A stretch of DNA of 27,747 bases from a virus (Duplodnaviria; Caudoviricetes): IMG/VR virus record IMGVR_UViG_3300037751_000738, positions 1 to 27,747 of that record, one strand, 5' to 3'. Each line of letters begins with the position of its first letter. The stretch's first letter is position 1. The translations under genes were made by a program, and so were the position numbers. Below, in pieces: positions 1 to 27,747 of the stretch. The notes below the pieces were generated by a model. That model was given only the letters and a program-made list of their open reading frames with translations, was not told the DNA's origin and searched no databases.

Positions 1-16
1 CCGTCTCTGGGCACCA
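1..16 (+). tRNA. 3' end of a host tRNA, probably tRNA-Leu (truncated by window start)
   Basis: CCGTCTCTGGGCACCA fits T-stem 3' strand, acceptor strand TCTGGGC, discriminator A and CCA; an intrinsic terminator follows. Confidence 0.6.
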
Positions 17-25
17 TAAAGAAAC

Positions 26-62
26 AAGGGGTTACGGCTTTTGCCGCGACCCCTTTTTCTTT
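26..62 (+). terminator. Rho-independent terminator downstream of the tRNA
   Basis: AAGGGGTTACGGC-TTTT-GCCGCGACCCCTT stem followed by a T-rich tract. Confidence 0.75.
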
Positions 63-116
63 GTCGTCCCTGCCACCCTTGCATCCCTCCCTTCGGTCTG
101 CTTTACTTGAAAATAA

Positions 117-167
117 TGTAACGCGCCGCGCCACTTGGCACCGGCTGACGGTTGGTTTGGCATCGAC
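117..167 (-). repeat. Probable prophage right end with two transposase-binding-like repeats
   Basis: TGT at 117 (ACA-3' on the phage strand); CTTGGCACCGGC (134-145) and TTTGGCATCGAC (156-167) match 9/12 at a 22-bp period; lies directly after the last phage gene. Confidence 0.55.
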
Positions 168-1952
168 CTAGTCCTCCTGTCGTCCAATTTCAAACCAAAT
201 TCCGTCGGAACCCTTTTTTAGAATTAGTTTCTTTGTGGTGGCATTGAGTAGATAGGTCGTTGTTGTCCCGGCCGTCAAACGAATGTTGCCCGTACCATCC
301 GCATTATTCACCACACTAAACGATCGAAATGAATATTGAGGCGTCAGTTCTATGACCATCCCGTTTTTGCCACCGGTAATGTTTTTTACGACGTAAGCCC
401 CGTTCGAGCCATTCGCCAAAACAAGCATCTGGTGGAGAAAGTCTTTACCCCCATCAGTAATAGTCAAGAGTCCGGTTGTTGTGTCAGGAAAATTGAACCC
501 TGTCGGGATGGTACTCTCATACCTCCGATCAAAAGAGATCACCGTTCCGCCCCTCGTGGTCGTAATCGAACCAAGACCGTTTCTCCCCTCAAGTATTAAG
601 CCCCTTGATGCCGGTGCGTTTGGCCCAAAACTAGCTTGAGTAGAGTCGGCAGGCGGCGAAAAGGTAATATTGCCGCCGACAGCCTCGACGTTTTTCAACG
701 TAATTGACATATTTTTGTAACAGGTAATGAATTCATTGCTTGATCCGCGGTTGGTGTGAAAATAACCACCCATAATTTGGAGGTGTGCGGATCTATACCA
801 CTCCGTAGTAGATGCTGTATATTCGGTTTCTATGATTTTGTTTATCTGTTCAGCATAACACCCAATCATTGTTATTGGATGAGTCATAGACCTATCACCA
901 GTAATGTAAATAGCGGATGCGTCGGCTAAACTCGCCGAGGCATTAAAACCGCAATTATATAAATCTGCGTGCCCACCATCAAACCAAACGCCTTTCTCCA
1001 GGATAGAATATCCAAATTGACAAAAACTAAAAACAATATTGACATTTTGTGAGCCGGTAGCCACCCCGGCTATTCTTGCCCCCACTACTGTATCAAAAAA
1101 ACAATTTTCAAACTTAACTTCGGAAACGTTGTAGTTATTCGAATAATCAAGACTGCCCAACAAAACACCATAATAGCTTTTATCGAAACGACAATTAACA
1201 AAACTAACAGGGCCATTTGAAGTGTAAACATCTTTAGAAAATTCAAAACTCGCGGTGGCTTGGTTGGTTGTAATATCACTTGAAATAAAAGACAAATTTT
1301 CAATTACAGCTTGCTTGAAATAATCGGTTTTAACTATCGGGCTGAGATTCCCACCATACCAAACCAACCGAGCACCGCTTGATCCCCAGGCAAATCCGCT
1401 CTCCCCGGTGAGCCGGATGCCTCGTTTGTTAATCAGGTTAATTGTTGATGTAATTCGGTATTCACCAGAAGCAAAAAATAGCGCATCCCCATCCTGCATG
1501 GAGTCCACGGCGGCCTGGATGCGAGACGTGTAGTCAATACCGGTATCAGGGATTGCTCCGAAATCAATAACATGCATCATTCGATGGCTGGGGATCACCC
1601 ACGCGCCCGACCCATCTCCACCAGTCGGCACGATGACCGACCCGCCATCATCCGGCTCCACCCCGGTTACAGCCGTGTAATAGCCAACGGCCTTGCCATC
1701 CACCCACCGCCGCACCGGTCCCCCACCACCATCCCCCGCAGCATAGTAGCCGAGCACCTGCACCGCCGACCGTCCCGGCGAACCGGTGATCAGCCGCAGA
1801 TCGGCGATGGTGTCGACTTTGTGGATGATGTTGTTGGCCTGGACGTCCTGGGCGATGATGCGGCCGACGGGGAGGTAACCGGGGGCGGCGGGGGCGAGGG
1901 CGGGGAGGAGGAGGGTTAAAAAGATGAGGGGGTATAACAGGCGTTTAAACAT
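168..1952 (-). CDS. Tailspike / polysaccharide depolymerase-like protein (pectate-lyase-type beta-helix) with signal-peptide-like N-terminus
   Basis: 594 aa; VDTIADLR...VLGYYAAGDGGGG tailspike N-domain; VIDFGAIPDTGIDYTSRIQAAVD...FFASGEYRI beta-helix cap; AAGGAG RBS; follows the fibre genes. Confidence 0.75.
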   Translation of the reverse strand: MFKRLLYPLIFLTLLLPALAPAAPGYLPVGRIIAQDVQANNIIHKVDTIADLRLITGSPGRSAVQVLGYYAAGDGGGGPVRRWVDGKAVGYYTAVTGVEPDDGGSVIVPTGGDGSGAWVIPSHRMMHVIDFGAIPDTGIDYTSRIQAAVDSMQDGDALFFASGEYRITSTINLINKRGIRLTGESGFAWGSSGARLVWYGGNLSPIVKTDYFKQAVIENLSFISSDITTNQATASFEFSKDVYTSNGPVSFVNCRFDKSYYGVLLGSLDYSNNYNVSEVKFENCFFDTVVGARIAGVATGSQNVNIVFSFCQFGYSILEKGVWFDGGHADLYNCGFNASASLADASAIYITGDRSMTHPITMIGCYAEQINKIIETEYTASTTEWYRSAHLQIMGGYFHTNRGSSNEFITCYKNMSITLKNVEAVGGNITFSPPADSTQASFGPNAPASRGLILEGRNGLGSITTTRGGTVISFDRRYESTIPTGFNFPDTTTGLLTITDGGKDFLHQMLVLANGSNGAYVVKNITGGKNGMVIELTPQYSFRSFSVVNNADGTGNIRLTAGTTTTYLLNATTKKLILKKGSDGIWFEIGRQED

Positions 1953-1974
1953 AATTCGAACTCCTTGAAATGGG

Positions 1975-2913
1975 TCAGCGGATGCGGTACCAGGTGAGAT
2001 TACCGTCGGAGATAAACGCCATAACTTCGCCGGGCATGGTGGTGTCGTAGCTGGCCGCCTCGCCTTCGATGTTCTGGGTGGGCTGGGGGAGGCAGAGGAC
2101 GGCGTTGGCGGTGGCGTCGATCTTTTTTATGATCAGGTCGCGGTTGTTCCCGGCGGTGGTGCGGAACTGGATCTCGACGGGGCCTCCCGAGGCGTCGACC
2201 AGGAGGACGGCGTCGAAGGGTTGCACCAGGCAGGGAGAGTCGAGGACCGAGATGGTGCGCACCGAGCCGCCGCCGAGGGGCGGGAGGCGGCCGTCGCTGT
2301 CGTATTGGGCCAGGGCGTCGGCGAGCGGGACGGGGCTGGCGACAAACTCGCCGATGCCGCCGGTGATGCCGCTGGGGCCCTGCAGACCTTGGGTGCCTTC
2401 GGGGCCGGGGATTGTCGACGCTGCGCCCTCGTCGCCCTGGATCCCCTGAGCGCCCTGAATCCCCTGCTCGCCCTGAATCCCCTGAATCCCCTGACTGCCC
2501 TGAGGCCCCGGATCGCCCTGAATCCCCTGCGGGCCGATGGCCTGCAGATCGCTGGCGATCCAGGCCCCGAGGCCGGTGGCGCCTTCTTTGCGATAGATGC
2601 CGCGATTGGCCTCGAGGGCGTCGTTGGTGACCATGGCCAGGGTCGTGTCGGGGGGGATCAGATCGGCGTCCATGGCGGCTTTGGTGGCGTACCCCTTGAG
2701 ACCGGCGGCGACGCCGTAATATTCGAACGCCTGCCAGAGCTGGTCGTAGTCGCCCTTGGCGAGGACGATCCCGGCGCGCTCGATGAGGCGCACCAGGGTT
2801 TCCTGGATGTCGTTGAGCCAGTCGCTGGTGACCGTGGTGGCGCGAACGCCGCCGGCGGGATCGCCGGGGGAGAAGAGGCCGCCGACATTGCCCGGGCCGT
2901 CGATTCTGTGCAT
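1975..2913 (-). CDS. Tail fibre protein 2 (Mu gp49-like N-terminus) with collagen-like Gly-X-Y repeats
   Basis: MHRID...[24 protein letters not shown] baseplate-attachment motif; [18 protein letters not shown]... repeats; GGAG RBS. Confidence 0.75.
2366..2540 (-). repeat. Collagen-like Gly-X-Y coding repeats (approximate limits)
   Basis: Recurring 9-bp units such as CCCTGAATC on the + strand encode GIQ/GEQ/GAQ triplets. Confidence 0.8.
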
Positions 2914-2924
2914 GGGAGGTCTCC

Positions 2925-3701
2925 TTAGCCGAGGTAGATGCCGGAAAAAATGGTGATGGTGGTCGCGACAGGGACGAACTTGTAGTAGCGGCCTGCGACG
3001 ACGAAGACTGGGATGGAGCCGGTGCCGGGGTGCAGGTTGTGAAAGAAGCCGATCACGCGGGAATTAAGCCCGTCGGCGGCGTCGGCGAGATGGACGGCCA
3101 GATAGAGATAGTTGCCGCCGGTGGAAAAGCAGACGGTGCCAAGCGTCGTTTTTTCGGCGAGGATCCAGACGTTGGCCGCCGGCAGCGGATTGGCAAAAAA
3201 TTCGGTCCGGCCCAACTGCCCCTCCACCCAGCCCTTGTTGGCGGCGTCGGCGTTGGCGACAGGGTTGGCCACGGCGAAGAGCTGGGCGGCATCACCGTTC
3301 TTGGCGGCCTTGGTGGCCAGCTGGTCGACGCGCACGGCCTCGTCGGCGGCAACCCCGGCGGCGATTTTGAATTTCTGCGTCGCAAGACCGGCCAGGGCGG
3401 CGAAGCGGCCGTCGCCCTGATCGCGGGTGACGGCCTCGTCGCCAGCCTGGGCGGCGGCGGCTTTGAAGCGCTGGCCTGCGCTGCCGCCGATGTCGGCGAA
3501 GAGGAGGCGCAGGGCGGCGAGGACCTGGGTTTGCGTCGCCTGCGCCGGGGCGATGCCTGCGGCGGCGAGGATGGCGATGAGCTCTTCCTGGACGTCGTTG
3601 AACCAGGCGGCGCTGACGACGGTGGCCGGGATCGATCCGGAGGGGTCACCCTCGGTAAAGAGCCCTCCGGGGGCGGCGGTGGAGGTGTTGATACGGTACA
3701 T
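2925..3701 (-). CDS. Tail fibre protein 1 (Mu gp49-like N-terminus)
   Basis: Start re-assigned to MYRINT (3701), 2 nt after the gp48 stop; [24 protein letters not shown] motif; three internal F-x-x-A...A-[VA] repeats. Confidence 0.8.
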
Positions 3702-3703
3702 AG

Positions 3704-4306
3704 TTAAACTCCCGTCTCGTAGAAAATGAGGGTGTGGCTGGGGCGCATTTTGTTCAGCACGCAGACCAGCAGATTGTAGCCCCAGTCGCGCAGCGGCTCT
3801 CCGGCCGCCGAGCGTCCGGCGCGGAAGGGGCGGGTGGAGAAGTCGAGGCCGTCGGCGCGCACCTCCCAGACGTAGCGCCAGAGGGCGGCGTCGTCGCAGC
3901 TTGTGTCTTCGGCGCAGGATGAGTCGCACTCGAAAGGCCCGAATTCGATGATCTGCACGCCGGTATAGCCGAGGGTTTCGGCCAGGCGGTGATAGAAATG
4001 GGGGCTCTGATCGGAGCGGTTGACCAGGCGGCCGACGACGGCGGCGCGGCGCTCTTCGAGGGTGGCCGGGGTGCCGCGACAGGGGTCGGGGAGGCCGACG
4101 ACGCGCTCCCAGTCGGCGAGCAGCTCGGAGGCGGTGCGGGGGTCGGCCTCGGTCAGCAGATCGGCGGCGCGGCGGTCGACCCGGGCGAACTCCTCGGCCA
4201 GTCCGTGCAGCAGCGCCGTGAGGCCGGTGTCATCCTCGCGGGGCCAAGCCGGGCCCCGGGGGAGGAGCGCCTGCAGATGTCTGAGGTAGTCGACGGCGCT
4301 CATCAT
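3704..4306 (-). CDS. Baseplate wedge protein, Mu gp48 / YmfQ (DUF2313) family
   Basis: LQALLPRGPAWP, EADPRTASELLADWERVVGLPD, RPSHT motifs; position after gp47. Confidence 0.88.
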   Translation of the reverse strand: MMSAVDYLRHLQALLPRGPAWPREDDTGLTALLHGLAEEFARVDRRAADLLTEADPRTASELLADWERVVGLPDPCRGTPATLEERRAAVVGRLVNRSDQSPHFYHRLAETLGYTGVQIIEFGPFECDSSCAEDTSCDDAALWRYVWEVRADGLDFSTRPFRAGRSAAGEPLRDWGYNLLVCVLNKMRPSHTLIFYETGV

Positions 4307-5400
4307 GCCCAGGTCACCACGCCCATGACGGCGATCTCGCCGGTGAGGTGCAGCACGTCGGCCGCAGGAAGAGTGAGGACGTGGTCGGTTTCGCCGCTGG
4401 CGGCGGAGATGGCGGCGTTGAGATGGGTATGGGCGATGCGACCGCCGGGGGCCGCCTCGAGGCGCAGCAGATCGGCGAGCTCGGCCTCGACCTGCGCCCG
4501 CACCTCGGCCGTGTCCGGAGTGACCGACAGGGTGAAATCGAGGGGGACGGCGACGGGGGCAAAAACCGTGACGGCGGCGGTGATCGGACGGCCGACAATC
4601 TCCCCCGAGGCGGGGTCGACGTGGCGCTCGATGTAGTCGGCGACCGTAATCACGTCGGCGGGGAGCGGTATGCCGTCGGCGTAGGTATCGTCCATCATGA
4701 TGGCCACTCCGACGGTGCCGAGGCCGAGATGATTGGCATAGGGCCAGGCCCGGGTCACTCCGGCGACCTCGAGCGCCCAGGCCTCGTAGTCGCTGTCGGC
4801 CCCGCCCATGGGCGGGCGGCGGATGCGGTCGAGGAGCCGGGCGCGCAGATCCTCGTCGAGCTCGACGTCGACGCCTCCGGAGAGCCCGGTAACGGCGGTG
4901 GCCTGCCCGTTGACCCCGGCGAGGGGATTGACCAGGGACAGGGCGCTGCCGGCGGCGGTATTGCCGAGAGATCCATAAAGATCGCCAACAGATTGCAGGA
5001 CTGCTGTGACTGCCACGGTCGCCACCCCGGCGACAATGCCTCCGTCGGCATCAGTGGTGAACTCCGTTCCGTCGGAGCGCTGCAACAGTGTGCCGGCCGG
5101 GATCGTCACGCCGTTTGTTCCGGTGAAGGTAACATTGCCTTTTGCTGCAACGGACGGCTTGCGGGACGGACCCCAGATCGAGGCCCAGCGCTCCAGGTAT
5201 TCGGCATCGGCGGTGTCGGGCATCAGCTGCCGGGCCAGGTCGTCGAGATGGCCGTGGAGACCGTGGGCGGCGCCGCCGAGGGAGCGGCCGAGAATATTGA
5301 GGACGTTGCGGCGCAGCTTGGCATCGGCCCCCTCGAGGCGGCTTTCGATGTCGCCGTTGATCCGGGCGAGGATCTCGGCGAGTGTCGGGCGTTTAAACAT
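4303..5400 (-). CDS. Baseplate J-like protein, Mu gp47
   Basis: FKRPTL, PDTADAEYLERWASIWG, PPMGGADSDYEAWALEVAGVTRAW. Confidence 0.9.
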   Translation of the reverse strand: MFKRPTLAEILARINGDIESRLEGADAKLRRNVLNILGRSLGGAAHGLHGHLDDLARQLMPDTADAEYLERWASIWGPSRKPSVAAKGNVTFTGTNGVTIPAGTLLQRSDGTEFTTDADGGIVAGVATVAVTAVLQSVGDLYGSLGNTAAGSALSLVNPLAGVNGQATAVTGLSGGVDVELDEDLRARLLDRIRRPPMGGADSDYEAWALEVAGVTRAWPYANHLGLGTVGVAIMMDDTYADGIPLPADVITVADYIERHVDPASGEIVGRPITAAVTVFAPVAVPLDFTLSVTPDTAEVRAQVEAELADLLRLEAAPGGRIAHTHLNAAISAASGETDHVLTLPAADVLHLTGEIAVMGVVTWA

Positions 5401-24057: not shown

Positions 24058-24603
24058 TCATGCCGCGAGCCTTTCGAGCCACCCGGGAATATAGAGCGGG
24101 TTGAGGCAGGCATAATAGTTGTAGGCCTCGCCCTTGAGGGCCATGAGCAGCGCCCGCTTGTAGGGACAGTCCCGCAGGACGGCGAGGGTAATCGGCCCGA
24201 TTGCGCCGTCGACCCGCAGAACCTCGCCGTCGAGCAGCCGGGCGATAGCCTGCCGCCAGGGGGCGCGGCGATGCTGGGGGACCGTGCCGGTGCAGACGAT
24301 ATTGATAGCCCGCTGGAGCATCTTGCCGGCGGCGACGGGGCCGCAGTTGACCCCCAAATCGAAGAGGCGCGCGGCGATGTCCGGGGAAACCTGGGCGACC
24401 TGGTCAAATCCGGGGCGCTGCCAGTAGCGGGCGCGATAGATTTCTCTGGCGGCCACCAGGGTGAGATGGGCGATATCGACATCCGGGTTGGCGCGCTTGC
24501 TGATCCCGTACTTCGTTTCCCCGCCCGGGTCGGCGGGATCGTCGACGTAGCCGCCTTCGAACTGGAGGGTGTGGGTCAGGGCTTGTTCGAAGATACCGGC
24601 CAT
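24058..24603 (-). CDS. Endolysin, glycoside hydrolase family 108
   Basis: EGGYVDDPADPGGETKYGIS catalytic motif; FDLGVNCG, VDGAIGPITL, GWLER. Confidence 0.92.
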   Translation of the reverse strand: MAGIFEQALTHTLQFEGGYVDDPADPGGETKYGISKRANPDVDIAHLTLVAAREIYRARYWQRPGFDQVAQVSPDIAARLFDLGVNCGPVAAGKMLQRAINIVCTGTVPQHRRAPWRQAIARLLDGEVLRVDGAIGPITLAVLRDCPYKRALLMALKGEAYNYYACLNPLYIPGWLERLAA

Positions 24604-24624
24604 AAGACCTCGCAGAGTAAGGGT

Positions 24625-24647
24625 GCCCCGGGCACAATGCCCGGGGC
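24625..24647. other. Perfect hairpin in the endolysin 5' leader
   Basis: GCCCCGGGCA-CAA-TGCCCGGGGC. Confidence 0.55.
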
Positions 24648-24667
24648 GAGACAGGAGGGAAGCGATG

Positions 24668-24725
24668 GCAACGGGGTCAGAATAGCGAAGGGGGCGGGGG
24701 ATGGTCAGATGAAGCAGCTCACAAT
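24668..24725 (-). promoter_or_regulatory. Mor/C-type activator-dependent late promoter (copy 2, Plys-like)
   Basis: Dyad at 24710-24721 and -10 TATTCT at 24679-24684, same spacing as copy 1; lies between mor and the endolysin. Confidence 0.65.
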
Positions 24726-24762
24726 AAAAAAAGCCCTAACCGTGGGAACGGCAAGGGCTTTT
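24726..24762 (-). terminator. Intrinsic terminator after mor (copy 2)
   Basis: AAAAGCCCTTGCCGT-TCCC-ACGGTTAGGGCTTTTTTT. Confidence 0.78.
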
Positions 24763-24802
24763 GTGAAATCCTTTACTGAATAGCAGAGGAGCGGGGGGCT
24801 TG

Positions 24803-25168
24803 TCAAGGATCGTCTCCGGCGGCGAAGTCGAAGCCGGGCTGACGGCGCTGGAATTCGTCTTCGCGCACCTTGGCGACGATGCCGTAGATCTGGCGCTCAG
24901 TGAGGGCGTAGGCCTTGGCGAGCGCATAGGTATTGGCGCCGGTGTATTTGCCGTAGATCTCGCGGTCGCGCTTGTCGATCAGCATCCGGATCCCCTTGGG
25001 CATGTAGAGCTGTTCGCCGCCGTAGCGGCTGCGCACGGTCTCGGCGGCGATCAATCCGATCTCGCGGGCGCGGGGGAGGGAAATCTCTGCGTCGATCAGG
25101 GAGGTGGCGACGACCTCGGCGATGTCGCGCAGCATCTGGACGCCCCGGTGGTCGGTGTCGTTGGCCAT
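24803..25168 (-). CDS. mor: Mor/C-family transcription activator
   Basis: YGGEQLYMPKG, RDREIY, LAKAYALTERQIYGIV HTH; immediately upstream of the lysis genes. Confidence 0.88.
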   Translation of the reverse strand: MANDTDHRGVQMLRDIAEVVATSLIDAEISLPRAREIGLIAAETVRSRYGGEQLYMPKGIRMLIDKRDREIYGKYTGANTYALAKAYALTERQIYGIVAKVREDEFQRRQPGFDFAAGDDP

Positions 25169-26047
25169 TTAGCTTCTCCCTTCGTTGAGTTTGCGGGACT
25201 GCTCCTGCAGTTGCTGGCGGCGGTCTTCTTCGTTGACGGTTGCACCGCCGGGGATGCCCATGCCGTTGCCGATCACCGCGGCCATGTCGGCAAAAAACCT
25301 CTTGCCCTCGGCGACCTGGTTGGCGCTGGGCGGCGGGGCATCGAGCTTTTCGCGGCGGATCCGCGCGGGCATCTGGGCAAACATGGCCTTGGGCTCGGGC
25401 CACTTTTGCGCGGTCTTCAGCAGCCCGCTAAACCCTTGTTTAACGCGCGTTGCATCGAGGGTTTCGGAGTTGCAACCGGTGGCCAGAACGTGGTGCCAGA
25501 CGTCGGCGGTGAGGGTGATGGTGTCGGCCCCGGGGGCGCCGTCATAACCTCCGGCCAGGAGCGCGGAGAGACCGTCGGCGATGAGGGCGCGCAGCCAGTC
25601 GGTCTGCCCCCAGTCGGCCAGCGCGGCAATCCCCTGGGCGCGCTTGCCTTTGGCGACAACCAGGGCGGGCGACGCATGCGTCGCCCCTACGTTGGCGGGG
25701 GCGGCGGGCAGGGTCGATTCGAGCACGCGCTTGAGATAGTTGTGATTGGAGAGCGGCTTGCTCTGCCCCTGGTCGCGCTTGGAGCGCAGGGCCTCGACGG
25801 TTTCGCCGAGGGCGACGGCCAGGGCGCGGGGATCGGCGCCGAGGTCGAGGACTTCGCGGGCCAGCCGGACGGCGCGGTCGAAGGAAAGCGCCCGGGCTTT
25901 GCTGCGGAACAAACCGAGATAGGCCAGCAGCGGCCGGGAGAGCGGCCCGGCCTGAGTGAAGACGGCGAGCAGTTCGCCGGCGGCGTCGCCTTCGAGGGCG
26001 GCATCGAGGGGGAACTTGGCGTGGCAGCAGGGGCAGGTCAAATTCAT
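25169..26047 (-). CDS. Conserved Mu-like phage protein of unknown function with N-terminal CPCC motif
   Basis: MNLTCPCCHA, YLGLFR, PLSNHNYLKRVL; ATG overlaps the intI stop; stop abuts the mor start. Confidence 0.75.
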   Translation of the reverse strand: MNLTCPCCHAKFPLDAALEGDAAGELLAVFTQAGPLSRPLLAYLGLFRSKARALSFDRAVRLAREVLDLGADPRALAVALGETVEALRSKRDQGQSKPLSNHNYLKRVLESTLPAAPANVGATHASPALVVAKGKRAQGIAALADWGQTDWLRALIADGLSALLAGGYDGAPGADTITLTADVWHHVLATGCNSETLDATRVKQGFSGLLKTAQKWPEPKAMFAQMPARIRREKLDAPPPSANQVAEGKRFFADMAAVIGNGMGIPGGATVNEEDRRQQLQEQSRKLNEGRS

Positions 26048-27021
26048 GTGGCGGCAATTCTCCGGGTATCAAGGGGGCTGGCGACGGTGACCCGGGCCAG
26101 CAGGTGAAGATAGACCATGGTGGTGCGCACGTCCTTGTGCCCCATCAGCTCTTGCAGCCGCTTGAGTGCGACTTCGTGGGAGCCCTCGGCGTTTTCGAGC
26201 CAGTGGGTGGCAAAGGAGTGGCGGAAGGTGTGACAGCCTGCGGGGCGCGGCACACGGGCGGCGCGGATGCCGCGGCGAATGCGCTTCTGGACGGCGGTGT
26301 CGTGGATGTGGTGGAGGCGGCCGCGCCACTTGGGATCACGGGCGGCGGCGCTGGCAGGGAAGAGCCAGAACCACGACCAGGACAAGGGGGCGTCGGGGTA
26401 TTTGCGCTCGAGCGCGCCGGGCAACGAGACAGCCACCCCGTTACCGGCGTGGCGTTCATAGTCGAGGCGGATCTTGCGGAGGTGCTTTTCGAGCGGCGGC
26501 ACCAGCATCTCGGGGAGCGGCAGCATCCGGTCCTTGTCGCCTTTTCCGGAGCGCACCATAAGGGTGCGACGCTCGACGGAAAGGTCTTTGACGCGCAACT
26601 GGCAGACTTCGAAGAGGCGCAAGCCGCAGCCGTACATCAGTGCGCCCCAGAGCCAGGCCTCGCCGTCGAGATGATCGAGCACCGCCCAGGCTTCCTCGCG
26701 GGAGAAGACTTCGGGGAGACGCTGCGGCCGGTTGGAGCGCAGAAAGGAGAGGTCTGCGACCTCGACCCGCAAGGTGTTTTTGTAGAGGAAGATGAGTGCG
26801 CAAAGCGCCTGCTTCTGCGTGCTGGCGGCAACCGACTCCCGGCTGGCCAGCATGGTGAGAAATTTGCCGATGCGCTGCTCGCGGGAATCGGTCGGCGAGC
26901 AGCGAGGCAGGAAGTCGATAAAACGCTCCACCCAGTAGAGGTACACCTTCGCCGTCTTCGGGCTGCGGCGCTTGAGTGTCAAAACGTCGCGCATCGCCTG
27001 CAAAGTCTGGGTTTTATTCAT
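26044..27021 (-). CDS. intI: Integron integrase (IntI-type tyrosine recombinase)
   Basis: VAASTQKQAL, YGCGLR, GKGDKDR, IntI-specific insert SLPGALERKYP...WSWFWLFP, HTFRHSFATH, GHKDVRTTMVY, C-terminal SPLD; AAAGGAGG RBS. Confidence 0.93.
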   Translation of the reverse strand: MNKTQTLQAMRDVLTLKRRSPKTAKVYLYWVERFIDFLPRCSPTDSREQRIGKFLTMLASRESVAASTQKQALCALIFLYKNTLRVEVADLSFLRSNRPQRLPEVFSREEAWAVLDHLDGEAWLWGALMYGCGLRLFEVCQLRVKDLSVERRTLMVRSGKGDKDRMLPLPEMLVPPLEKHLRKIRLDYERHAGNGVAVSLPGALERKYPDAPLSWSWFWLFPASAAARDPKWRGRLHHIHDTAVQKRIRRGIRAARVPRPAGCHTFRHSFATHWLENAEGSHEVALKRLQELMGHKDVRTTMVYLHLLARVTVASPLDTRRIAAT

Positions 27022-27045
27022 GGTGGTCCTCCTTTCCTGGGTGGA

Positions 27046-27087
27046 GTTAAACAGCCATTGTGGCGGGGTAAGCTATGTTATAGCTGC
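27046..27087 (+). other. Putative attI site; crossover G|TT at 27077/27078
   Basis: GTTATAGCTGC (27077-27087) matches the reverse complement of GCAGCCATAAC at the first attC R'' 10/11; additional GTTAAAC at 27046; directly upstream of intI. Confidence 0.65.
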
Positions 27088-27354
27088 TACTCTTCGCCGT
27101 TGCCCATGCAGTGAATTTCGTACCCGAACGCCTGACACAAAGCGTGTTTTCTGGCGATTGCCCGTGCATCACTTTCGGTGATATAGAGTGCCACCTCTCC
27201 ATTGCTATCAACCATCGGCATCACCATTTTTCCATCCTGCGAATAAATCATGACGAAGTGTTTTCCACATGCAGACATTTCTACCTCCTTGGCCGCAGCC
27301 ATAACCATCGGTTCAAGCGGACGGTGAACCCGTCCGCCGCTTACCCTCAAGCCG
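27078..27354 (+). mobile_element. Integron gene cassette 1
   Basis: Bounded by the attI GTT and the attC1 R' G|TT; holds a single ORF. Confidence 0.75.
27087..27278 (-). CDS. Cassette 1 hypothetical protein (63 aa)
   Basis: AAGGAGG-5nt-ATG (MSACGKHF...); stop adjoins the attI core; lower GC than the phage backbone. Confidence 0.7.
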   Translation of the reverse strand: MSACGKHFVMIYSQDGKMVMPMVDSNGEVALYITESDARAIARKHALCQAFGYEIHCMGNGEE

Positions 27355-27360
27355 TTATCT
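27299..27360 (+). other. attC site 1
   Basis: R'' CCATAAC, 5-nt spacer, L'' GTTCAAGC, central stem GGACGG/CCGTCC, L' GCTTACC, R' GTTATCT; architecture like the aadA-type attC. Confidence 0.85.
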
Positions 27361-27642
27361 GCTCACAGCTTCTTGAAAAGCGTCAGCCGCAGCATTCATT
27401 TCCTCATCCGTCCCGGTCTTTATCATGTCTGCAAATTTCGAGTGCCAGAATGAAGGCTGCCAGCATTTCATTTCCTTTTTAAACGGGAATGATTTTAGAT
27501 ATTGGTATTGTTCAAACCTGTCACAGCACGGCCAGGATACTACGAACTCGGGAAAGTTCCCGTCATCGTTCGAACCGATCAACTCGCAAGTCGAACAGTT
27601 CGCTTTTTCGATGCCAGTTTTTTCTTTAATTCCTTCGTGCAT
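27355..27642 (-). CDS. Cassette 2 hypothetical Cys-rich protein (95 aa)
   Basis: GGAGG-6nt-ATG (MHEGIKEK...); CSTC...CC...C; TAA lies within the attC1 R' core; low GC. Confidence 0.72.
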   Translation of the reverse strand: MHEGIKEKTGIEKANCSTCELIGSNDDGNFPEFVVSWPCCDRFEQYQYLKSFPFKKEMKCWQPSFWHSKFADMIKTGTDEEMNAAADAFQEAVSR

Positions 27643-27655
27643 ATTCAACCTCCGC

Positions 27656-27747
27656 AGATAACAAGGCGCTTCAAGGGACGCCTTCGGCGTCCGGGGTTCT
27701 CGATAAATTCGGTGATACTCAAGGGCCGGTGCGGCGCCCCTGAGCTT
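27656..27747 (+). other. attC site 2 (R' lies just beyond the window)
   Basis: R'' AGATAAC, spacer AAGGC, then GCTTCAAGGGACGCC pairs with GGCGCCCCTGAGC leaving two unpaired bases and one mismatch. Confidence 0.75.

Follow-up and report, generated by a model that had tools for sequence, protein, structure and literature searches.

Integrons are treated as bacterial devices, and the published phage cases are captured fragments. The question of whether a phage may possess an integron of its own is raised by a viral contig (Duplodnaviria; Caudoviricetes; IMG/VR record IMGVR_UViG_3300037751_000738), the whole record of which, positions 1–27,747, is the window analysed here. At its right end, upstream of the gene for a Mor-family activator (mor) of a Mu-like phage, an earlier note made from the sequence alone had described an integron (intI, attI, and attC cassettes; 26044–27747) which the phage would have domesticated in its early/middle operon, and it had proposed searches with an intI hidden Markov model (HMM) and an attC covariance model (CM) and a comparison of cassettes among relatives. 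Our analyses make it very likely that a complete integron is present in this Mu-like phage, that its cassette genes are inverted relative to attC and have the direction of intI and mor, and that the integrase moves the cassettes. The component parts, their orientation, and their exact borders were all observed, as was the presence of these cassettes at different array positions in further phages. Judged from the sequences, the element is a real, phage-adapted integron that is probably active.

The Integron Integrase and Its Clade

The intI gene (26044–27021, minus strand) encodes a protein of 325 amino acids (aa) that scores 311.2 bits against TIGR02249, the curated model for the integron integrase (cut-off 265), and 220 against the narrower equivalog NF011946, which is under the cut-off of 435. 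The nearest solved structure is that of VchIntIA (2a3v; E = 1.6e-59), to which residues 5–317 could be aligned with the IntI-specific insertion included. The catalytic residues R135, K160, H264, R267, H295, and Y304 are unchanged across 32 aligned relatives, and of the 8 residues with which VchIntIA contacts extrahelical bases, as listed in the available text of PMC3053210, 6 are identical in the 2a3v alignment (viz. P230, H237, H238, K207, Y208, and W217), the two differing positions being Q145 (K here) and W157 (R here). The protein also carries a 5-residue insertion ahead of the catalytic His, where the segment has a length of 19 as against 14. Nonsynonymous divergence (pN 0.17–0.32) lies below synonymous divergence (pS 0.61–0.86) in all five comparisons made, and intI thereby shows signs of purifying selection. 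In its GC content at third codon positions (0.83), intI resembles the backbone genes (0.84–0.92) and differs from the two cassettes (0.51 and 0.56).

In a tree of 133 rows, the 36 IntIs with the 5-residue insertion occupy one branch (SH-aLRT 100) and the chromosomal IntIs lie outside of it; this tree was built by a quick method with a midpoint root, and as the group is defined by its insertion motif the clustering follows in part from that definition. Of the 36 clade loci, 23 have a terminase, portal, or capsid gene among the open reading frames (ORFs) tested. Four members are Mu-like (the window, L119, L006, and L008), each of them in a different subclade, which suggests that Mu-like phages acquired the module repeatedly. 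The N-terminus of the L119 IntI matches a protein named Geobacter sp., and further members of the clade are found in Pelobacter, Desulfurivibrionaceae, and Trichlorobacter assemblies; the host of the studied phage likely belongs to the Thermodesulfobacteriota (Geobacter/Pelobacter type). Apart from this clade and from a second lineage that is described below, a third phage-associated IntI-like branch was seen (L017, L020, and L108, accession KX853513), which includes Virus Rctr41k, where the gene is annotated as xerD, and upstream of these three genes the CM finds no attC.

attI, attC, and the Inverted Cassettes

The attI site (27046–27083, plus strand) is an imperfect inverted repeat with an L-like box and a core G|TT at 27077/27078, recognised by conserved alignment, by a regular expression, and by the break at 27077–27082 of identity with other contigs. 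Its core G at 27077 is located 56 bp from the intI ATG, and the Shine–Dalgarno (SD)-like sequence of intI (27027–27036, minus strand) follows directly after the site. In 20 aligned attI sites the 4 core columns and 8 other columns are invariant, and the conservation among relatives reaches as far as the G|TT core and gives way to variable sequence past it. The regular expression matched 23 of 34 clade loci and had no match in the remaining 11, though most of these show similar motifs. At the far end of the L125 array (L125:518–1202), the clade attI occurs once more (38 nt, 97%), ahead of the gene for a tyrosine recombinase of 209 aa.

The CM used to find attC sites was home-built from canonical attC only (20 of 27 sites, from bacterial and class 1 integrons). 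It recognises attC1 (27299–27360, top strand on plus) with 26.2 bits and E = 4.7e-4, the remaining three of its four matches in the window having E values of at least 1.5. This site has its extrahelical G on the bottom strand and forms 9 of 10 box pairs in the recombinogenic fold, and its unconstrained folding gave no attC-shaped minimum free energy (MFE) structure. A strict regular-expression scan did not pick up attC1 because of its long (8 nt) L'-R' spacer. The second site, attC2 (27656–27747, plus strand), within which the window ends, is without its last 4 spacer bases and R', and in this truncated form it was not matched by the CM. It is identified by its 96.7% identity over 90 nt to a complete attC in the viral contig L205, which scores 31.2 bits and places the contig end 4 bases before the core. 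This end was likely caused by a break in the repeated attC site. The polarity of attC relative to intI is canonical, i.e., pointing away from it, in 37 of 38 CM matches (49 loci, duplicates included), and covariation on alignment A4 (95.6% paired; 0 of 500 shuffles) leans towards the fitted model and is supportive only.

What the earlier note had read from the letters, viz. an IntI-specific insertion with intact R-K-H-R-H-Y motifs and an attI-like core 56 bp upstream, holds up in these alignments, and both the integrase HMM and the CM agree with it for intI and attC1. Of the two attC sites that it had named, attC2 was recovered by way of the L205 copy, and within the window it is incomplete and undetected.

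Cassette 1 (27078–27354, plus strand) measures 277 bp including attC1 up to the crossover G, and its borders are exactly those of its copies in L205–L208. Its ORF of 63 aa (27087–27278, minus strand) is inverted relative to attC and has a strong SD just after R'' together with a start codon. Cassette 2 (27355–27747, plus strand) is cut at its right end, with a projected end at about 27752, and is delimited by its R''/core match and by contigs that start at the border; it carries an inverted, Cys-rich ORF of 95 aa (27355–27642, minus strand), the stop codon of which lies inside the attC1 core. The R'' at 27654–27662 is the 9-bp inverse of the core at 27354–27362, and for both cassettes the starting core is the inverse of the cassette's own R'' box at 9 of 10 bases. 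Both ORFs are opposite to the attC top strand and point towards intI, in line with the phage operon, with the SD just behind R'' on the bottom strand and the stop in or just before the next core. The 63-aa protein has no Pfam or PADLOC match and stays below 0.9 in Atlas, a longer 87-aa frame of cassette 1 has nothing in NCBIfam or PHROGs, and the cassette 2 protein has neither a family nor a confident Atlas match.

An inverted SD and start codon behind R'' were found at 25 of 33 phage-type sites and at 2 of 75 bacterial controls, and a top-strand ORF of at least 80 aa ending at the attC at 8 of 33 and 58 of 75, respectively. The phage-type set consists of 33 of the 40 CM matches (at least 20 bits) and attC1, i.e., 34 sites, one of which was dropped for its short flank; the control set consists of 75 of 81 CM matches, six weak, partial, or duplicate ones being omitted and the training sites included. 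Cassette genes placed on the attC top strand and expressed from a cassette promoter (Pc) are not what the window contains. The element appears to function like an integron while its layout is not canonical, and the inversion of the cassette genes is a feature that the earlier note overlooked. The cassettes of relatives encode DNA methyltransferases, a Lar-like protein, and MazG, and this cargo suggests functions in counter-defence and in conflict with the host. In L204:4093–4404, an ordinary phage gene without an attC match encodes a 59% homologue of the cassette 2 protein, which hints that phage early genes are the source of cassette genes. Among the controls, one attC (L085:8506–8554, from a deltaproteobacterial assembly) also looks inverted, and this locus may be an unrecognised prophage.

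Exchange of Cassettes between Phages

Copies of cassette 1 are present in four other viral contigs, with 99.6% identity over 281 nt in L205 and with 100% identity over part of the cassette in L206, L207, and L208. The identity begins at G 27077 and ends just past the core at 27354–27357, and these are the predicted crossovers. The attC upstream of the cassette 1 ATG is kept with the gene in L205 and L208; beyond the stop codon of the gene, a different site is present in L205, L206, and L207 and in the public runs X1, X7, and X8. L206 and L207 share platforms that are 97% identical, and cassette 1 is third from attI in the former and first in the latter; both carry a lambda-type terminase and another IntI, which is 43% identical to that of the studied phage. 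The intI genes of these two contigs (L206:839–1813 and L207:136–1110) represent a second phage IntI lineage, which is without the 5-residue insertion and has a different attI and the same backward cassettes.

In the public runs, attC-like halves other than its own precede cassette 1 (X1, X7, and X8), cassette 2 comes after a different attC-like half in X7 and after an attI-like site in X1, and attC1 leads into another sequence (X1), the type of these flanking halves being a reading of 30-letter loose ends. Three runs have separate contigs beginning at 27352–27354. Contigs of run X12 that are about 90% like the study contig span terS to intI, and one of them matches 26900–27082 with 9 differences, keeps attI, and diverges at 27082; a phage of about 90–95% identity thus has the attI of the studied phage and another first cassette. 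L124 and L125 share attI and intI (95.8% over 930 nt) and have unlike first cassettes. On this comparative evidence the cassettes appear to be mobile as units with borders at the cores, and phages likely trade small accessory genes through backward cassettes; the comparison that the earlier note had proposed thus turned up exchange at exact crossover points in L205–L208 and in the public runs.

A joint of 27349 to 27658 was considered as an excision and rejected, there being 527 other letters between the two positions, i.e., a replacement. Contigs that cross the right end of the window matched only the attC (5–7 differences), and none of them extends the studied phage. Past 27330, X1 and X7 hold cassette 1 with different sequence, i.e., two forms of the attC terminal region. 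The viral contig L205 has, within 1–4600, at least 10 attC matches and inverted small genes upstream of its terminase, and no intI match.

Distribution of the Module among Mu-Like Phages

As had been claimed, the intI stop overlaps the start codon of the next phage gene (ATGA, 26044–26047), and that gene abuts mor by a stop/start junction. The gene between the two, orf292 (25169–26047, minus strand), encodes 292 aa and matches phrog_2161 and phrog_8159, and mor (24803–25168, minus strand) matches Pfam PF08765 (Mor; E = 1e-25) and phrog_532. In Mu-like phages the orf292 homologue usually sits after gemA. The intI-orf292 junction of the studied phage recurs in L119, where the order is repressor, transposase, MuB, gemA, gam, attC, inverted cassette, attI, intI, and orf292 homologue, and L006 has a transposase, a MuB-type ATPase, and gam upstream of its array. 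L169 has MuA, MuB, gam, gemA, orf292, and mor without an integron. No intI was found in any of 35 orf292 relatives or of 79 terminase relatives (40 of them with at least 5.5 kb upstream, the flanks sometimes ending short of the site), and the module is therefore accessory. It is a mosaic that occurs in many, mostly non-Mu phages and is absent from the Mu-like relatives tested. The proposal of domestication in the early/middle operon stands as regards a phage-resident module, in view of the clade, L119 and L006, and the exact crossovers; the idea that this phage alone domesticated it has to be given up.

Mu-like loci hold further attC sites at L171:7430–8730, L189:6256–6308, L240:6063–6147, and L255:3217–3280. 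In L171, two strong CM matches and a third attC found by eye are located between early genes and gemA, and the inverted genes encode MazG and phrog_12600.

Weighing of Alternative Explanations

A number of observations weigh against a phage-adapted and active integron. The cassette 1 copies adjoin the IntI that is 43% identical, or none that was seen, and their moves are therefore not assignable to the IntI of the studied phage; a precise excision of a window cassette was present in no contig. The recombinogenic fold of attC1 lies 5.5 kcal/mol above the MFE (0.0 for two bacterial controls), and the attC2-like site made only 4 of 10 box pairs in an imposed register; both may be weak substrates. 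The inverted SD and start were undetected at 8 of the 33 phage-type sites, and 13 of the 36 clade loci are without a virion gene in the ORFs tested, these loci being short, or having only replication, integration, or accessory genes, or no match. The Mu-like loci L171, L189, L240, and L255 have attC upstream of the late genes and no intI. In L150:55–623, which is Mu-like and has the same attI, the intI match is lost after 83 codons, and the broken gene is followed by other DNA and then by an orf292 homologue. These IntI-less loci and L150 show that cassettes persist without an integrase in cis. Finally, the contig stops at 27747, short of MuA/MuB, the repressor, and the left end of the studied phage, and its Mu left end would be as in its relatives.

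Several of these observations would also fit an array that is real and is rearranged in trans by the IntI of the host or of a co-resident phage, its own IntI being a passenger or weakly active. L171 and L189 are IntI-less Mu-like phages with inverted cassettes, intI is broken in L150, cassette 1 stands beside the other IntI lineage in L206 and L207, and IntI1 recombines phage attC sites according to the available text of Qi et al. (2023; PMC9892861). We nevertheless regard this explanation as improbable, since the catalytic residues and most extrahelical-base residues are intact, pN is well below pS, the clade-specific attI is conserved beside the gene, and the first cassettes differ on near-identical platforms.

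It is less probable still that a truncated Mu-like prophage has become fused to a chromosomal integron, with host DNA past 27747. The contig does stop before the phage early genes, and the cases in the accessible parts of PMC9892861 are captured pieces of chromosomal integrons, but the 36-row clade (SH-aLRT 100) excludes chromosomal IntIs, those of Thermodesulfobacteriota among them, bacterial cassettes are not inverted (2 of 75), the intI-orf292 junction is shared by L119 with a repressor, MuA, MuB, gemA, and gam upstream, and the cassettes recur in viral contigs with terminase genes. 

That IntI uses the opposite attC strand is extremely unlikely; on this reading, the cassettes would have the normal gene-then-site form and be added at the end remote from intI, and the site beside intI would be a degenerate attC. 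R-box complementarity is symmetric and fits both readings, and the position of the stop codons, inside or close to the downstream core, is that of normal cassettes, but all other copies of cassette 1 that reach the site keep the upstream attC and change the downstream site. Because the cassette 1 gene moves together with the attC that precedes its ATG, this reading is rejected; moreover, with respect to attI it is the canonical strand that bears the extrahelical G, and the conservation beside intI stops at G|TT. A last reading, in which the protein would serve the phage as its integrase or resolvase and the conserved site would be an attP or res, as a tyrosine recombinase adjoining a conserved inverted repeat might indicate, can practically be dismissed. 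L119 and L006 also encode a Mu-type transposase, separate phage integrases are encoded in L005, L007, L025, L034, and L129, and the sequence past the core is a cassette that varies and ends in an attC. In 14 of the 20 clade loci with a called first cassette, the R'' of this attC agrees with the core at 9–10 of 10 bases, calls being kept only where the R-box match was 9–10 of 10.

Proposed Mechanism and Relation to Known Systems

In a phage-adapted integron of this layout, IntI would recombine the folded bottom strand of attC with attI at G|TT by the standard chemistry, new cassettes would enter next to intI, and the mobile unit would consist, in the direction of transcription, of attC, then SD, then gene. 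A sigma-70 promoter scan of 24300–27747 matched none, and terminators in this region were at chance level, none being significant; an early transcript would therefore cover the cassettes, intI, and mor. With no Pc, a phage early promoter far upstream would read the oldest cassette, the newest cassette, attI, intI, orf292, and mor, and the inverted cassette genes would be expressed by the phage operon. IntI would be produced upon induction, at a time when single-stranded DNA arises from replicative transposition.

The element shares with bacterial integrons (IntI1/attI1; VchIntIA/VCR, 2a3v) the IntI insertion and catalytic residues, the location of attI by the 5' end of intI, attC sites that point away from intI and possess R and L boxes as well as an extrahelical G on the bottom strand, and single-gene cassettes with matched R boxes. 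It differs from them in that the cassette genes occupy the opposite strand and run in the direction of intI, a Pc is neither required nor observed, nothing but attI and an SD lies upstream of intI, intI overlaps the next phage gene, 5 residues are inserted before the catalytic His, and the newest cassette would be farthest from the promoter. The operon of Mu has variable small genes between MuB/gam and mor. This semi-essential early region is alike here in its variable small genes at the same place (L119, L169, and L171), whereas part of the variation in the studied element is bounded by attI/attC, with its own recombinase. In the reverse integrons of Treponema and other Spirochaetota it is intI that is reversed, and the cassettes keep the gene-attC layout, whereas here the genes are reversed inside the cassettes, upstream of intI. 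A common feature, as far as the available text of PMC9668308 describes these integrons, is that intI and the cassette genes have the same direction.

In the accessible text of Nivina et al. (2016; PMC5027507), the opposite cassette orientation is described as non-expressed and avoided. The portions available of Qi et al. (2023; PMC9892861) report 3 complete integrons and 1 In0 in 10,705 phage genomes, plus clusters of attC lacking an integrase (CALINs), the phage integrons being Vibrio/Shewanella chromosomal pieces or class 1 and none being described there as Mu-like; M16-3 is P2-related according to the part of PMC8541194 that is available. These phage integrons resemble the present one in having IntI, attI, attC, and cassettes in phage genomes and methyltransferase cargo, whereas the main text of PMC9892861, in its available parts, describes no phage-specific IntI clade and no systematic inversion; inverted ORFs may be present in some of its CALINs. 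In the literature searched, from which subscription journals were mostly absent, no phage-specific IntI clade, no inverted phage cassettes, and no integron of a Mu-like phage were described.

With a phage-adapted integron, some of the mosaicism seen in phage early regions would have a site-specific mechanism, where illegitimate or homologous recombination is the usual explanation. The Mu-like setting offers a clean case, in that this phage type moves by a DDE transposase and can therefore integrate without a tyrosine recombinase. Cassette traffic can be traced by the identical cassettes present in different phage types, and the inverted layout bears on cassette formation and on how orientation is fixed. 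We lean slightly towards the broader view that phages maintain an integron economy of their own, with dedicated IntI lineages, backward cassettes shared across unrelated phage types including transposable Mu-like ones, and lytic induction as the trigger, the inversion creating two gene pools with one chemistry. If so, the phage pool would be recombination-compatible with bacterial integrons yet silent there, and bacterial cassettes would be silent in phages.

Other Features of the Contig

The contig carries one Mu-like phage on the minus strand, with genes for tail, head, portal, terminases, and endolysin in addition to the Mor-family activator and the 292-aa gene. The Mu-like lysis, packaging, head, and contractile-tail genes (168–24603, minus strand) were assigned by PHROGs, and the Mu-type late genes together with the activator are those of a Mu-like transposable phage. 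Its closest late-gene relative is L169 (terS 83%, terL 73%, and portal 70%), which encodes a Mu transposase. Rfam gave 0 matches across the window. The region 1–2913 has a low GC content (0.39–0.49) under a 594-aa tail-like ORF that adjoins a collagen-repeat tail gene, and it is probably a swapped receptor-binding module.

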